13,218 bases of DNA from the IMG/VR virus record IMGVR_UViG_2693429582_000029; one strand, 5' to 3'. Made by a program: the position numbers and the translations under genes. This DNA comes from a virus. Lineage: Duplodnaviria; Heunggongvirae; Uroviricota; Caudoviricetes. The notes under the pieces were generated by a model. It saw only the letters and a program-made list of their open reading frames with translations, ran no database searches and was not told the origin of the DNA. Of this stretch, positions 6,544 to 13,218 are shown piece after piece (within the stretch, counting starts at the first letter, position 1; each line of letters starts with the position of its first letter).

Positions 6544-6906
6544 ATGGCTAGCGAACGCAGTACCAACGTGCAGGAATTTATCGTAGAACTGGACGGCGGC
6601 GTATTTGAAACTAAACTCGGCGCAGTTCTCAGTGAAGTCGCTTCCGGTGTGATGAACACGAAAAACAAAGGTAAAGTCTCGGTCAATCTGGACATCGAAC
6701 CGTTTGATGAGAACCGTGTGAAAATCAAACACAAACTCTCATATGTTCGCCCGACTAACCGCGGGAAAATTTCTGAAGAAGACACCACCGAAACGCCGAT
6801 GTATGTCAATCGCGGTGGTCGCCTGACTATTCTGCAGGAAGACCAGGGACAGTTACTGACTCTTGCCGGTGAACCTGACGGAAAACTCCGTGCAGCAGGT
6901 CGTTAA
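6544..6906 (+). CDS. yfdP: YfdP-like prophage protein (120 aa), first gene of the early-left operon
   Basis: ATG at 6544 with RBS GAGGAG 7 nt upstream. The longer six-frame ORF (from a TTG at 6313) would run through the leader hairpins and is rejected. Symbol assigned by length and position relative to the yfdQ/yfdR-like genes, as in CPS-53, from memory. Confidence 0.65.
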   Translation: MASERSTNVQEFIVELDGGVFETKLGAVLSEVASGVMNTKNKGKVSVNLDIEPFDENRVKIKHKLSYVRPTNRGKISEEDTTETPMYVNRGGRLTILQEDQGQLLTLAGEPDGKLRAAGR

Positions 6907-6971
6907 TATCGTTTTTAATAAACTGATTATTTATCTCATCACTGAATATCTTTATATAGTGAGGACTTATT

Positions 6972-7796
6972 ATGTCTCAGAACTTAGACGCAACCGCAAT
7001 TAATCAAATCCATGCTCTTATTTCTGCTCAGGGTGTTAATGAAATTATCAGTAAGATTGGTGCCGATGCCGTGGCATTGCCTGAGAATTTCCGCATTCAT
7101 GATCTGGAAAAATTTAATTTAAATCGCTTCCGTTTCCGTGGTGCGCTTTCCACTGCCAGTATTGATGATTTTACCCGTTATTCTAAAGATCTTGCAGATG
7201 AAGGCACCCGCTGCTTTATCGATGCCGATAATATGCGAGCCGTCAGTGTGCTTAACCTGGGTACTATTGATGAACCAGGTCACGCAGATAACACCGCCAC
7301 TCTCAAACTGAAAAAGACAGCACCGTTCTCTGCCCTGTTGTCTGTTAACGGCGAGCGTAACTCCCAGAAGTCACTGGCAGAATGGATTGAAGACTGGGCC
7401 GACTACCTTGTGGGCTTTGATGCTAATGGTGACACCATTCAGGCAACAAAAGCGGCTGCGGCAGTCCGTAAAATAACGATTGAAGCAAACCAGACCGCTG
7501 ATTTTGAAGATAATGACTTCAGCGGCAAACGCTCCCTGATGGAATCTGTCGAAGCGAAGACCAAAGACATTATGCCAGTGGCATTTGAATTTAAATGCGT
7601 TCCGTTTGAAGGCCTGAAAGAACGTCCGTTTAAATTACGCCTCAGCATTATCACTGGCGATCGTCCTGTACTGGTTCTGCGCATTATTCAGCTGGAAGCA
7701 GTGCAGGAAGAAATGGCTAACGAATTTCGTGATCTGCTTGTTGAGAAATTCAAAGACAGCAAAGTAGAAACCTTTATTGGTACTTTTACCGCCTGA
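6972..7796 (+). CDS. yfdQ: YfdQ-like prophage protein (DUF2303-type), 274 aa
   Basis: Clean ATG at 6972 with GAGGA 7 nt upstream; uninterrupted 274-codon frame with non-biased composition. The length matches E. coli K-12 YfdQ as I recall it. Confidence 0.75.
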
Positions 7797-8460: not shown

Positions 8461-8813
8461 ATGTTTTCGAAATGGAAGGGTTTCTTCGCGGGAAATGTGT
8501 ACCGCGAGATCTGAAAGTGAACGAAACAAATGCTGAGTACCTAGTACGTAAATTCGACGCGCTTGAAGCTAAATGTGCGGCACTGGAAAACAAAATAATA
8601 CCAGTGTCAGCTGAATTGCCACCTGCAAATGAAAGTGTTCTGTTATTTGATGCTAACGGAGAAGGCTGGCTGATTGGCTGGCGTTCTCTCTGGTACACCT
8701 GGGGACAAAAGGAAACCGGAGAATGGCAGTGGACATTTCAGGTCGGGGATCTTGAAAACGTCAATATCACTCACTGGGCAGTAATACCAAAGGCACCGGA
8801 GGCAGGGGCATAA
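8451..8813 (+). CDS. yfdS: YfdS-like prophage protein (120 aa)
   Basis: ATG at 8451 overlaps the end of the yfdR-like gene; an alternative ATG at 8457 forms an ATGA overlap. The stop overlaps the next start as TAATG. Confidence 0.65.
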   Translation: MRMNVFEMEGFLRGKCVPRDLKVNETNAEYLVRKFDALEAKCAALENKIIPVSAELPPANESVLLFDANGEGWLIGWRSLWYTWGQKETGEWQWTFQVGDLENVNITHWAVIPKAPEAGA

Positions 8814-9433
8814 TGACCACATTTACCGACAAAGAACTGATTAAAGAAATCAAAGAGCGCATAGGCAGTCTGGATGTGCGAGACAATATTGAGCGCCGTG
8901 CTTATGAAATTGCTTTGGTATCGCTGGAAGCAGAACCGGTGGCATGGCTGCATTCAGACAATGGCTTAGGTATTCCGGCAATAACACGGAGTAAAAACAT
9001 TGCTGACAGTTGGTTATCAAAGGGCTGGTATGTTCAGCCGCTATATATAGCCAAGCCAGTGCCGATGGTGCCAGATGTTCGTCCGTCTTTAAATAATGGC
9101 ATAGTCGGTTTTGATGAAGGCTGGAACGCCTGCCGCGCCGCCATGCTTCATGGTGCCGAACCTGTAAGCCAGACTTACAAGTTGAACGAGCTGTCGGGCA
9201 ACTCTCTGGTAACTCCGGATGGTTGGATAAGCTGTAGTGAGCGAATGCCGGACGATAAACAGTATGTTTGGTGTTGGGGTAAGTCTTACGGCTGGACTGA
9301 GTGCGATACCTTCGAAGGGTATTACGATTGGTCGAGAAACAAATGGTGGGCAGTTACTGACGATGGGGAAGAACCGGCATCGAAAGTAACCCACTGGATG
9401 CCGCTACCGGAGCCACCGCAGGAGGTGAAGTAA
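8813..9433 (+). CDS. DUF551-domain phage protein (YfdT-like)
   Basis: 206 aa; C-terminal WISCSERMPDD...THWMPLPEPP matches the DUF551 signature common in enterobacterial phages. TAATG overlaps at both ends. Confidence 0.7.
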   Translation: MTTFTDKELIKEIKERIGSLDVRDNIERRAYEIALVSLEAEPVAWLHSDNGLGIPAITRSKNIADSWLSKGWYVQPLYIAKPVPMVPDVRPSLNNGIVGFDEGWNACRAAMLHGAEPVSQTYKLNELSGNSLVTPDGWISCSERMPDDKQYVWCWGKSYGWTECDTFEGYYDWSRNKWWAVTDDGEEPASKVTHWMPLPEPPQEVK

Positions 9434-9627
9434 TGAACAACTTAATGACAACTAAACAAGTCGCCGACTTCTGTGGCGTTTCAGTATCGACCGTTCTTCG
9501 CTGGAACAGCGTAAACAGGAGAACTGGCCAGAAATACAGGCCAGACTTTCCAGATCCTGATATTAAATCATGCCCAAATAAATGGGCATCACGCAAGATT
9601 TACAAATTTGCGGGAGTTATTGAGTAA
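9433..9627 (+). CDS. Excisionase-like small HTH DNA-binding protein (Xis/AlpA/TorI class)
   Basis: 64 aa; TTKQVADFCGVSVSTVLRWN is the helix-turn-helix of excisionase-type proteins. GGAGG RBS 7 nt upstream. Last gene of the operon, facing the integrase. Confidence 0.6.
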   Translation: MNNLMTTKQVADFCGVSVSTVLRWNSVNRRTGQKYRPDFPDPDIKSCPNKWASRKIYKFAGVIE

Positions 9628-9734
9628 CGAGCATTAGCTCAGATGAGAGTTGGTACACCTATGGCACAGAGCTAAACCTGATCTGTTATATTCGCTCTGT
9701 GCCGGAAGTATGCCATATTTATTACATACAGTTG

Positions 9735-11867
9735 TCAATCTTTAAGACTAATTGTGATTGCATCTGGAAATCCAATTTGGCTATAGCACATAGTTTCGGT
9801 TATGAATAATTTTCTATCGATAAAATCAAGTACATCTTTTTTCGTGAGCCCCGTTAACATCGTCAATTTGTTAATTACATAATCATACCAATCATGGTGA
9901 AGCATGTTTATATACATGTTAATATCAACTGCATCTTTCCTCCATGAATTATTCGGTATCAAATCTTCAGATAAAAATCCTCTTATTAAATCGCTTGCAT
10001 AGGACATCCTAAGAAAAACAGAAAGAAAAATCCTTACATTAACATGTGTAAAATTTGTAGATAGCGTCGAAGGAAACTCGTAAAACCGGTAGATCAACCG
10101 ACTTACAAACACAGCAGAGTCTATCGCATTTACTGGCAGTAATGTTCCGATGACACTTAATGCACCACTTATAACGAAGCCATTAGCAACAGAGGCATGA
10201 GAACCGCTTAGGGCAGATGTTAAACATGCACTCAGAATTACGATAGGAGGAATTCTTGCTATTTTTCTCAAACTCCAAGTGTCCACTTTATCCTCACCTA
10301 TTATTAACCATCCATGACTCCCATTGCCATCATGGTTTCCATGACAATCCATAACAAGAATATGACCTTGATATTGATTTAGAGCATCAATAAACTCAGC
10401 TTTCGATCTAACATCAATAATCTCGCAATCAAGATCTGGCATCTGTTTTTTAAATATCTCAATTGCGTTCTCTAATATGAACTTTAAGTGATCATCAGGC
10501 TCAAAAGAACGTATAACTAAAACCTTTCTCAACTCAGATGCTTTTACTAAAACGCGCGGAAAAGCAGAGGCGCTCTGTAGAAGAACGTTACCAGGCGTAG
10601 CATTTATTCTTGATATCTCATGACTGAACATTATAGGTATGTTATTAAACCTAATCCAATCCAATGGTACATCACAAACAAAGGACAAATCGCTATAGTT
10701 TTTACTTATATATGTTCTCAACTTGCAACCAAGGGCTCTTCGAATAACAGTATTGAATGCTTTAGATTTAGTGATGAATGCTTCACTATTTATCCCAGAA
10801 GAAGTTGCAAGATCTTCAAGATTTTTCAAATAATTGGAGTAATGATTTATTGCATTTGGCAATCTTATTGCTGGGATTTTTTTATTTATGCTAAATAAAG
10901 TAATCGCAGCTGTTGTTAATCGCATTTCAGCGCGTCTTAGTGAGGTGAGGTAACGGAAAGCAGGACTTTTAAAAAGTTCTTTTCTATCTGAATTTATATC
11001 AAGTCTAATTCCAGAATAGCCAGGATTCCTCAACACTCCATCAATAAGGAATTTTTTCTCAATTGTGGATAAATTTTCCGTTATTAACTCATAAAAGTCA
11101 TTATTTTTATCATATAAAAAAGAGTGCATACCCGGAGCAAAAAGTAAGACTTCCGTTGGAAGTGGTATATCTAATTCCTTTAAACATTCGGTGTATGCAT
11201 CAACGCTATGAAGTATTATTTCTATAAACTCTCTTTTGCTACTACCATCTTTAATTCTTTTTGGTGGAGATAGCATATAGCCAAGTGATTCAATTAACAA
11301 CTCATTGGGTAGTGTTGAATTGTTAAGCGTCGATCTCCAAGGTGATTTATTAAATAAAGCCCCTCTTCGCTTCAACTTCGTTGATATTTTCTTTTCACTG
11401 TGATTTTTTCTTATTTTATCCTCAATGAATTTCAACCGAGAGAAGAGCACCTTATCAAATGAGTATATACTATTAATCTTATTAAGTGGTTGATCAGCGC
11501 GTTTAGAATTGCAACAAATTATAGGTGGTATAGCAAAATGTTTTTTTAAAGCACAAACATACGAAAAATCTTCTTTAGCACAAAAAATTAAGCAAAATGG
11601 CGTTTGATAAATATTTGGTATTTTTTCAAGATTTTCTTTAGATATTAAAAAAATAGGATTTAGCCCGCTTAGAGTAGGCTGAAAGTTATCATTTTCATTG
11701 ACAAAAATCTCACTAATTTCTTTTGGTGTTTTGGCCAATAAAAAAAGAATGTTGGATATCTCTGGGTTGAGGAGGCCAGTATCGAAACCTTGGATTATGG
11801 TTTGTTCCCCAGTAGTAGGCATGATTACAACTTTAAGTATCGCCCCGTGTTCCTGTAACAGTTCCAT
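9735..11867 (-). CDS. Large (~710 aa) protein with a C-terminal caspase-like CHAT protease domain and an uncharacterised ~430 aa N-terminal region; candidate defence/abortive-infection effector
   Basis: Uninterrupted 2.1 kb frame in very AT-rich DNA. First ATG at 11867 with an AGGA RBS; the six-frame ORF extends to a TTG at 11924. Caspase/CHAT catalytic signature: HILVMDCHGNHDGNGSHG (His codons at 10341-10343 and 10314-10316) followed about 30 residues later by PPIVILSACLTSA (Cys codon 10224-10226). Confidence 0.85.
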   Translation of the reverse strand: MELLQEHGAILKVVIMPTTGEQTIIQGFDTGLLNPEISNILFLLAKTPKEISEIFVNENDNFQPTLSGLNPIFLISKENLEKIPNIYQTPFCLIFCAKEDFSYVCALKKHFAIPPIICCNSKRADQPLNKINSIYSFDKVLFSRLKFIEDKIRKNHSEKKISTKLKRRGALFNKSPWRSTLNNSTLPNELLIESLGYMLSPPKRIKDGSSKREFIEIILHSVDAYTECLKELDIPLPTEVLLFAPGMHSFLYDKNNDFYELITENLSTIEKKFLIDGVLRNPGYSGIRLDINSDRKELFKSPAFRYLTSLRRAEMRLTTAAITLFSINKKIPAIRLPNAINHYSNYLKNLEDLATSSGINSEAFITKSKAFNTVIRRALGCKLRTYISKNYSDLSFVCDVPLDWIRFNNIPIMFSHEISRINATPGNVLLQSASAFPRVLVKASELRKVLVIRSFEPDDHLKFILENAIEIFKKQMPDLDCEIIDVRSKAEFIDALNQYQGHILVMDCHGNHDGNGSHGWLIIGEDKVDTWSLRKIARIPPIVILSACLTSALSGSHASVANGFVISGALSVIGTLLPVNAIDSAVFVSRLIYRFYEFPSTLSTNFTHVNVRIFLSVFLRMSYASDLIRGFLSEDLIPNNSWRKDAVDINMYINMLHHDWYDYVINKLTMLTGLTKKDVLDFIDRKLFITETMCYSQIGFPDAITISLKD

Positions 11868-11950
11868 CAAAAATCCTAATAAACAAATAAAAATGTTATA
11901 ATCAAAAACTGCAAGGATTAGCAAGCAATTCTTACAGTTTTAAGAAGGGG

Positions 11951-11976
11951 ATTATACCGCAATATGCATAATTGCG
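11951..11976 (-). promoter_or_regulatory. Candidate regulated promoter for the CHAT gene: perfect -10 TATAAT abutted by a palindrome
   Basis: Minus-strand TATAAT at 11956..11951, ~85 nt upstream of the ATG. Immediately upstream lies CGCAAT-N7-ATTGCG (11958-11976), where a -35 element would be expected. The nearest -35-like TTGCAT (11990..11985) is 28 nt away, too far for a standard sigma70 spacer. Confidence 0.35.
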
Positions 11977-12000
11977 TTCTGCCTATGCAAAATGTCAGTT

Positions 12001-13218
12001 CTAGTCTGAACAAGTACAAGTAACTATCGATTCAACCCTCTCCCACCACGCCTGGTAAGCTTTACGCTGTTCTTCTAAATAATCGCTCTTGTCATAAACC
12101 TGCCATACCCCTGGCAGTTTATGACCGAGCATTATTTCTGCAATATGAGGCGCAGTAAGATCAGAAAAGTTTGTTCGTGCTGTTCGTCTCAAATCATGAA
12201 GAGACCAATGAGGGAATTGATACCCCAAACGCCGCCATGCGTACTGCATTAAATTGTAAGGCAGCGACTGCAATGATGTCCGTCCAACGGGCTCCCTGCT
12301 TCCTTCCTTAGTAAAAAGCATATCGGAACCATTGTTCATAGAGATAACGTACTTTATAAGCTCTTCAACCGGTTCAATAATGGGGCGCTTTAGCGGTTCG
12401 CCTGTTATATCCCCTGTCTTATGTCGTTCTGGCGGTACAGTCCATACCTTATTTATGAAATCAAAATCATCCACCCTAGCAGTAATTAGCTCCGAACTAC
12501 GGCAACCAAAATGCAGTAATAGTTTAATGAAGGCCCGGTATTTGGGAACCATTCTAGAGCCATCGATCGCAGCATAAAGAATTTTAATTTCATCGTGTGT
12601 CAGAAACCGTTTCTTCTGACCTTTACGGATATCCATATCTTTACCCGTGATATCCGACAGCGGGCGAGTTTCAATAAGCTTTCTCTTATACGCCCAGACA
12701 TGGGCCTGCTTTGCGTTAATTAGCAATCGGTCTGCTATTGCTGGAGTCTTAGTGCTAAGAGGCTCCAAGACTTCTAACCAATCATGCAATGTAGCTGCAT
12801 CGTGAGGGATATTCCCGATTTTAGAGAACAGGTGCAGCTCAAACGAGCGGAGTATCTGTTCAGAACCCTTTTTATTTTTTACACAATATGCTTCATACCA
12901 GGCACGGATCACAGACTCTACCGTCATGGCTTCAGTAGCTTTTCGTTTTTCAGCCTGCTTGACCAATCGTGGATTACGGTTTGACTCGAGTTCACCACGG
13001 AGACGGATAACTTCTTCTCTGGCCTCTTTTAATCCAGTTGCCGGGTAAGTTCCGATATCAAGACGCTCACCTTTCCCTGCCCATTGATAACGATATTGGA
13101 ACACTACGCGACCTTTCGGTGATACTCTGACAGACAGACCATCACGATCGGATTTAACCAAAACCTTATCACGTTCCTTTCCAACGACTGAACGCAACCA
13201 CGCATCAGACAGCGCCAT
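12001..13218 (-). CDS. int: P4-type tyrosine site-specific integrase
   Basis: 405 aa, with the ATG exactly at the window's last three bases. N-terminal arm-binding region (MALSDAWLRSVVGKERDKVLVKSDRDGLSVRVSPKGRVVFQYRYQW); C-terminal catalytic motifs HDLRRTARTNF (H-x-x-R) and LGHKLPGVWQVYDKSDY (catalytic Tyr). Confidence 0.9.
   Translation of the reverse strand: MALSDAWLRSVVGKERDKVLVKSDRDGLSVRVSPKGRVVFQYRYQWAGKGERLDIGTYPATGLKEAREEVIRLRGELESNRNPRLVKQAEKRKATEAMTVESVIRAWYEAYCVKNKKGSEQILRSFELHLFSKIGNIPHDAATLHDWLEVLEPLSTKTPAIADRLLINAKQAHVWAYKRKLIETRPLSDITGKDMDIRKGQKKRFLTHDEIKILYAAIDGSRMVPKYRAFIKLLLHFGCRSSELITARVDDFDFINKVWTVPPERHKTGDITGEPLKRPIIEPVEELIKYVISMNNGSDMLFTKEGSREPVGRTSLQSLPYNLMQYAWRRLGYQFPHWSLHDLRRTARTNFSDLTAPHIAEIMLGHKLPGVWQVYDKSDYLEEQRKAYQAWWERVESIVTCTCSD

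Follow-up and report, generated by a model that had tools for sequence, protein, structure and literature searches.

A predicted Borvo (BovA) anti-phage defence gene in an AT-rich, exchangeable slot between xis and int of a cdtI-like Escherichia coli prophage

The virus record IMGVR_UViG_2693429582_000029, a DNA stretch of 13,218 nt (the window, meaning the whole stretch that was analysed), corresponded to positions 4520102-4533319 of E. coli O103 ML775 (NZ_CP193495.1) with one mismatch (at 8543). It covered that end of a cdtI-like lambdoid prophage which carries the immunity, early and integration genes, the integrase gene being the last before yjjG. Between the excisionase gene xis and the integrase gene int, whose 3' ends converge on this slot, lies an AT-rich island (9628-12000). 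The sole gene inside the island, bovA, is identified by profile and alignment as an already known anti-phage defence gene, Borvo. The coordinates of the features are listed in Table 1.

Table 1. Positions of the features at and around the xis-int slot, numbered from the first letter of the window
Feature	Position	Strand	Description
bovA (Borvo)	9735..11867	-	710-aa predicted CHAT-protease defence protein; start codon ATG at 11867, after an AGGA
Predicted catalytic His509 codon	10341..10343	-	DCHG motif; invariant in 32 homologues
Predicted catalytic Cys548 codon	10224..10226	-	LSAC motif; invariant in 32 homologues
bovA upstream region	11868..11967	-	100 nt, cassette-specific; missing from prophages with other cargo
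Variable cassette	9706..11967		Island proper, ~2.26 kb; bounded by homology breaks against prophages with other cargo
Imperfect inverted repeat	9651..9715		Core GGCACAGAGC ... GCTCTGTGCC; 25-nt arms, 76% complementary, loop of ~20 nt
xis	9433..9627	+	Excisionase, 64 aa; PHROG 1553 (E=9.4e-36); weak HTH_17/MerR match
int	12001..13218	-	Tyrosine integrase, 405 aa; Pfam Phage_integrase, Arm-DNA-bind_3, Phage_int_M

The PADLOC BovA profile PDLC03831 matched the protein with an E-value of 5.5e-241 and a score of 800 bits, residues 4-709 being aligned with positions 3-715 of the 720 in the profile. The Pfam CHAT domain (PF12770) was matched in part, over residues 488-592, with 26.5 bits against a gathering cut-off of 24. 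The same 710-aa coding sequence was present in the RefSeq annotation. An in-frame TTG upstream, at 11924, would lengthen BovA by 19 residues; the ATG at 11867 was preferred because both RefSeq and the family alignment support it, and M1 was near-invariant across the 32 aligned homologues, whose identity to BovA went down to 31%.

The AlphaFold model of BovA, built from that alignment of 32 homologues, had a pLDDT of 87 and a pTM of 0.88. Foldseek comparison of the model with the PDB gave significant matches to CHAT proteases only, namely Csx29 (E=3e-8), separase, the anti-sigma factor DdvA and SAVED-CHAT, and no solved structure of Borvo or of a relative turned up when the PDB was searched by sequence. 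The initial annotation had named a CHAT gene here; the CHAT protease was borne out by these searches, while the described Borvo defence system had gone unrecognised.

The single-gene defence system Borvo is reportedly due to Millman et al. 2022; the word Borvo does not occur in the main text of their preprint. At the family level, a full-length profile match, a CHAT domain with a His/Cys dyad and a single gene with no conserved partner were all found at this locus. The cassette (~9706-11967) held one long open reading frame between xis and int, and the neighbours of the BovA homologues in Pantoea and Serratia differed from those in the window. BovA thus shared with Borvo the size of ~710-720 aa, the C-terminal CHAT domain with an intact His/Cys dyad, the partnerless single gene and the E. 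coli origin. No family-level difference was detectable in this comparison, which was made through the profile.

Exact base counts gave a G+C content of 34.3% for 9628-12000 and 48.5% for the remaining window (chi-square p=5e-36). In the 300-nt profile, G+C stayed at 0.28-0.42 throughout 9601-12000 and at 0.43-0.57 in most other segments; in 60-nt lines, the mean was 0.343 inside the island and 0.485 outside (Mann-Whitney p=2e-17). The minimum among all 2373-nt segments began at 9661. The bovA gene had a G+C content of 34.1% (27.6% at third codon positions), and the other 17 genes of the window lay between 42.1% (the cI-like repressor) and 55.6%; the values of the neighbours were 42.6% for xis and 45.1% for int. 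Codons ending in A or T made up 74% of bovA versus 54% of the comparison set; per 1000 codons, ATA was used 52 times versus 9 and AGA 25 times versus 6. The compositional shift of bovA lies in both synonymous codon choice and amino-acid content.

These values agreed with the initial annotation, which had described from hand counts an island far more AT-rich than its flanks. Both of the counts that it gave, 15/60 for 11041-11100 and 21/60 for 10321-10380, were exact, and the restriction of the shift to one gene bounded by xis and int was verified, both neighbours being confirmed by family matches. The sliding-window G+C and codon-usage analysis that it had proposed as a check was run, and both a significant dip and a codon shift were present.

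A dip of this kind might be ordinary regional fluctuation of a mosaic prophage, with no special meaning. Smaller and shorter dips (0.37-0.41) did occur in the window, at 5551-6000 (the cI-like repressor and the spacer downstream of it) and at 6901-7200 (the yfdP-yfdQ spacer). However, the dip at bovA was 2.3 kb long, agreed with the homology breakpoints described below within tens of bases, and was the global minimum at its segment size, with the p-values of 2e-17 and 5e-36 given above. The computed profile and the breakpoints already rule this explanation out, and its probability is practically nil.

Comparison with prophages carrying other cargo at the same site located the edges of the slot. 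Homology ended at 9629-9710, just beyond the stop codon of xis and a conserved hairpin, and returned at 11968-12018, around the int stop codon (~35 nt past it). The slot corresponding to the island in L001 had a G+C content of 33.9%. The core of the inverted-repeat hairpin at the left edge was kept in most prophages with other cargo, and similarity faded right after it; by the terminator scan, this repeat was not a canonical intrinsic terminator. It marks the left edge of the variable stretch, and it may be the terminator of the xis operon or a preferred crossover point.

The contents of the slot were compared in 9 E. coli loci and 78 IMG/VR contigs, which were retrieved by the integrase gene. 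Twenty different contents were found, 19 types in the 78 IMG/VR loci and one further type in the E. coli genomes. Seven of the 20 were named or candidate PADLOC systems (Borvo, DSR1, dGTPase, dCTP deaminase, AbiU, PDC-S59, and a Septu-like PDC-M01A/B pair), which matched their profiles at or near full length; this is a plain count, as no formal enrichment statistic was computed. The nuclease-type cassettes encoded an Mrr protein with a HEPN N-terminal domain, an 870-aa HNH protein and a DUF4365 protein. A 239-aa protein in another cassette was HEPN-like on weak evidence, and nine cassettes were uncharacterised, with no family match in Pfam, PADLOC or (where searched) NCBIfam. A G+C content of 31-38% was found in 17 of the 20 cassettes, the exceptions being DSR1 (51%) and two short cassettes (42-43%).

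DSR1 was the commonest cassette in IMG/VR (L047 stands for 16 loci) and filled a slot of ~4.2 kb. Its 1275-aa SIR2 protein matched the PADLOC profile from end to end, and its composition makes it the one clear exception to the AT-richness of the cargo. The cassette of L086 encoded an uncharacterised protein with several long hydrophobic stretches.

The flanks were conserved whatever the cargo: xis was 92-100% identical across all related prophages. No slot was empty in the 78 IMG/VR and 9 E. coli loci (the smallest measured 1082 nt), and xis and int were directly adjacent in no sampled relative. Comparison of related int-xis slots, which had been suggested earlier as a way to look for different cargo, therefore yielded at least 19 other cassettes; the O-antigen modification genes (gtr) offered then as an example of such cargo did not appear, as no cassette protein searched matched a glycosyltransferase or GtrA family.

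Conserved flanks, sharp junctions, many alternative contents and a cargo rich in known defence systems, which characterise the hotspots of P2 and P4, were all present. By these sequence comparisons, the xis-int slot appears to behave like a prophage defence hotspot, which is a modest addition to what is known. In the accessible literature, which was limited to open-access text, no description of this xis-int slot was found, only work on P2/P4 and general reviews; an E. coli defence-island preprint did not mention yjjG, prfC or Borvo.

Of the 5426 complete E. coli genomes searched, 700 had the integrase (at least 95% identity). Borvo was found in 32 of the 5426 (of ~700 integrase carriers), always on the chromosome and at least 99.5% identical, and it stood in the same slot beside yjjG in all six carriers inspected. 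Among the carriers, the cassette was 99.5-100% identical (99.1-100% with both intergenic edges), int was 97.9-100% identical, and the yfdR-DUF551 flank was only 93-95% identical in four of the six. A near-identical cassette inside diverged flanks indicates, as far as sequence can tell, recent spread. Cassettes would be swapped between related prophages when these recombine within the conserved flanks, xis and int.

Homologues of BovA were also found outside E. coli, and there outside prophages. The homologue in Pantoea agglomerans was 68% identical and had a G+C content of 36% within flanks of 54-58%, and that in Serratia fonticola was 61% identical and had 35% within flanks of ~43%. The P. 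agglomerans homologue (L098:8001-10136) was cargo of a conjugative element, lying among TraU and TraC and beside a HATPase_c_3 protein. The S. fonticola homologue (L099:4201-10130) came directly after a Gabija-like pair (an OLD/TOPRIM ATPase and a UvrD helicase).

The Pantoea and Serratia homologues are equally AT-rich, and low G+C is therefore no proof of recent acquisition. Because the homologues and 17 of the 20 cassettes share it, low G+C is better seen as a persistent property of the pool of mobile cargo. It should not serve as an acquisition date, since the Borvo family holds to ~35% G+C in hosts whose flanking DNA has 43-58%. The island had been interpreted earlier as a recently acquired moron. 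That bovA is exchangeable accessory cargo is upheld by its presence in 32 of ~700 integrase genomes and by the at least 19 other cassettes; the use of low G+C as evidence of recency is not.

The persistence of low G+C also lends something to a different history, in which bovA would be old and vertically inherited and its composition would result from a constraint on function or regulation, such as silencing by H-NS. Homologues of only 61-68% identity have stayed at 35-36% G+C within flanks of 43-58%, and none of the 78 viral contigs had an empty slot (shortest, 1082 nt). Yet the gene occurs in only 32 of ~700 integrase genomes, and twenty unrelated cassettes share the same junctions. Moreover, the cassette (99.5-100%) is more conserved than its flanks (93-95%) among the carriers, which is the reverse of what would be expected under vertical co-inheritance. 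A vertical origin is considered improbable.

The function of Borvo has been studied in another E. coli strain. Borvo of E. coli 403116 works via abortive infection, the DNA polymerase of SECphi4, when expressed, was toxic solely in cells carrying Borvo, and phages T5, SECphi4 and SECphi18 escaped Borvo by mutations in the polymerase's proofreading cleft (Stokar-Avihail et al., bioRxiv 10.1101/2022.08.27.505566). Abortive infection and the polymerase trigger are thus known from the literature on the Borvo of that strain and not on the allele in the window.

Taken together, bovA is best explained as a self-contained single-gene cassette in a swappable xis-int slot of a cdtI-like prophage, which would provide Borvo-type abortive-infection defence; a probability of roughly 0.85 is given to this reading. 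Under the proposed working, a lysogen would express BovA, from the upstream region of the cassette itself or by read-through from int. The trigger would be an infecting phage with its own family-A DNA polymerase, and the polymerase or its activity would activate the C-terminal CHAT protease. The activated caspase-like protease would act through the His509/Cys548 dyad and cleave one or more cellular targets, presumably halting growth or killing the cell before the cycle of the invader is completed. Sister lysogens, and the prophage within them, would thereby be protected.

The carrier phage, for its part, would probably not set off its own BovA. The reason would be that the carrier lacks a DNA polymerase gene; in phage cdtI, no DNA polymerase was among the 60 genes annotated. 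The presence of Borvo on active temperate phages without a DNA polymerase of their own offers a simple, testable reason for the compatibility of carrier and system.

Phages of this family are known to bear virulence cargo, and a CHAT protein in such a setting might instead be a virulence or host-fitness moron, for example a protease effector, with no anti-phage role. Other parts of the phage cdtI genome contain cdtABC, cif and an NleH-like gene, and several Borvo carriers belong to pathogenic serotypes such as O103, O121 and O145. The evidence points away from this. BovA matched over its full length the profile of a family with a published abortive-infection phenotype, and profile, fold and domain searches found no secretion signal or effector domain (no dedicated signal-peptide prediction was run). 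Every other slot cassette that could be named was a defence system or a nuclease, and homologues adjoin Gabija-like genes. A virulence role is therefore very improbable, and the abortive-infection reading was retained.

The region upstream of bovA was scanned for expression signals. A perfect TATAAT was found at 11956-11951 without a matching -35 element, an AT-rich hairpin at 11905-11941, and the AGGA 6 nt ahead of the ATG. Promoter-like sites were fewer than in shuffled sequence. No canonical terminator was found after the bovA stop codon by the terminator scan. Expression of bovA may come from a private promoter or via read-through from int.

Several points weigh against an abortive-infection cassette of the kind proposed. 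The Borvo phenotype would be carried over from the 403116 allele, with a likeness at the level of the family profile. NCBIfam had no model matching BovA, and the RefSeq product name was only 'CHAT domain-containing protein'. The scan for sigma-70 consensus sequences found no complete promoter upstream of bovA; any bovA promoter is therefore putative, and expression in the lysogen is assumed. The exchange by flank recombination is inferred from mosaic identity. Finally, bovA is not always maintained, because it is broken in O121, where a 1-nt deletion disrupts it and one strain has an IS600 in it as well.

In O121 RM8352 (L015:2108-4239), the 1-nt deletion split Borvo into two pieces, an N-terminal one of 260 aa and a CHAT one of 396 aa, and in O121 GTVSS-020 an IS600 was also inserted in the Borvo gene. 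By these sequences, Borvo appears to be decaying in O121, a pathogenic lineage.

Comparison with sequenced phages showed that orf33 of phage cdtI and gene 0028 of phage Ayreon encode a protein 99.3% identical to BovA, in the same int-gene-xis order (cdtI orf32-34). The counterpart of xis in cdtI is orf34, annotated as excisionase, and both phages share with the window prophage the neighbours DUF551, YfdS, YfdR and YfdQ. The records of orf33 and 0028 read 'hypothetical protein' and do not name a defence gene. The Borvo gene is already known; it is recognised by current defence-finding profiles and has been in the cdtI sequence since 2007.

Csx29, the TPR-CHAT protein of the type III-E CRISPR system Craspase, was the nearest solved fold, over ~388 aligned columns in Foldseek. 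It has a caspase-like His/Cys protease of the same kind as BovA; however, identity was only 11-13% and the TM-score ~0.3. Membership of the Craspase system was rejected: the RefSeq annotation in and around the window contained no Cas7-11/gRAMP, no Csx30 and no CRISPR array, the likeness of fold was limited, and activation would not be RNA-guided.

Defence hotspots in P2 prophages and P4 satellites were described by Rousset et al. 2022 (PMC9122126). Like the xis-int slot, they have conserved flanks, a short slot and a cargo of mostly one or two genes, of which many are known defence genes and many are unknown. They differ in phage family, the present one being lambdoid and cdtI-like, and in position, which here is between xis and int at the end of the prophage.

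With the classical lambdoid morons of Hendrix and Juhala, bovA shares a composition that deviates from the surrounding phage genes, its place as an extra gene between phage genes, and its dispensability for the phage cycle; like them, it plausibly benefits the lysogen. Unlike them, it sits in a slot that was never empty in the sampled relatives, and a private promoter and terminator were not demonstrable.

New defence genes might be sought in the xis-int slot, which is compact, has fixed junctions and accepts ~20 interchangeable cassettes, about half of which are unnamed. These unnamed cassettes are a lead of moderate interest.

In the flanking int, arm-binding, central and catalytic domains were recognised. 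The ML775 prophage was unlike cdtI and Ayreon elsewhere, for example in an IS3-family element inserted in its KilA-N gene, at the window's left end (1-259; L001:4137-6259). Because the element splits this gene, the ML775 prophage has at least one disrupted gene. The single mismatch, at position 8543 (A in the window, G in NZ_CP193495.1), lay in a third codon position of the yfdS-like gene.

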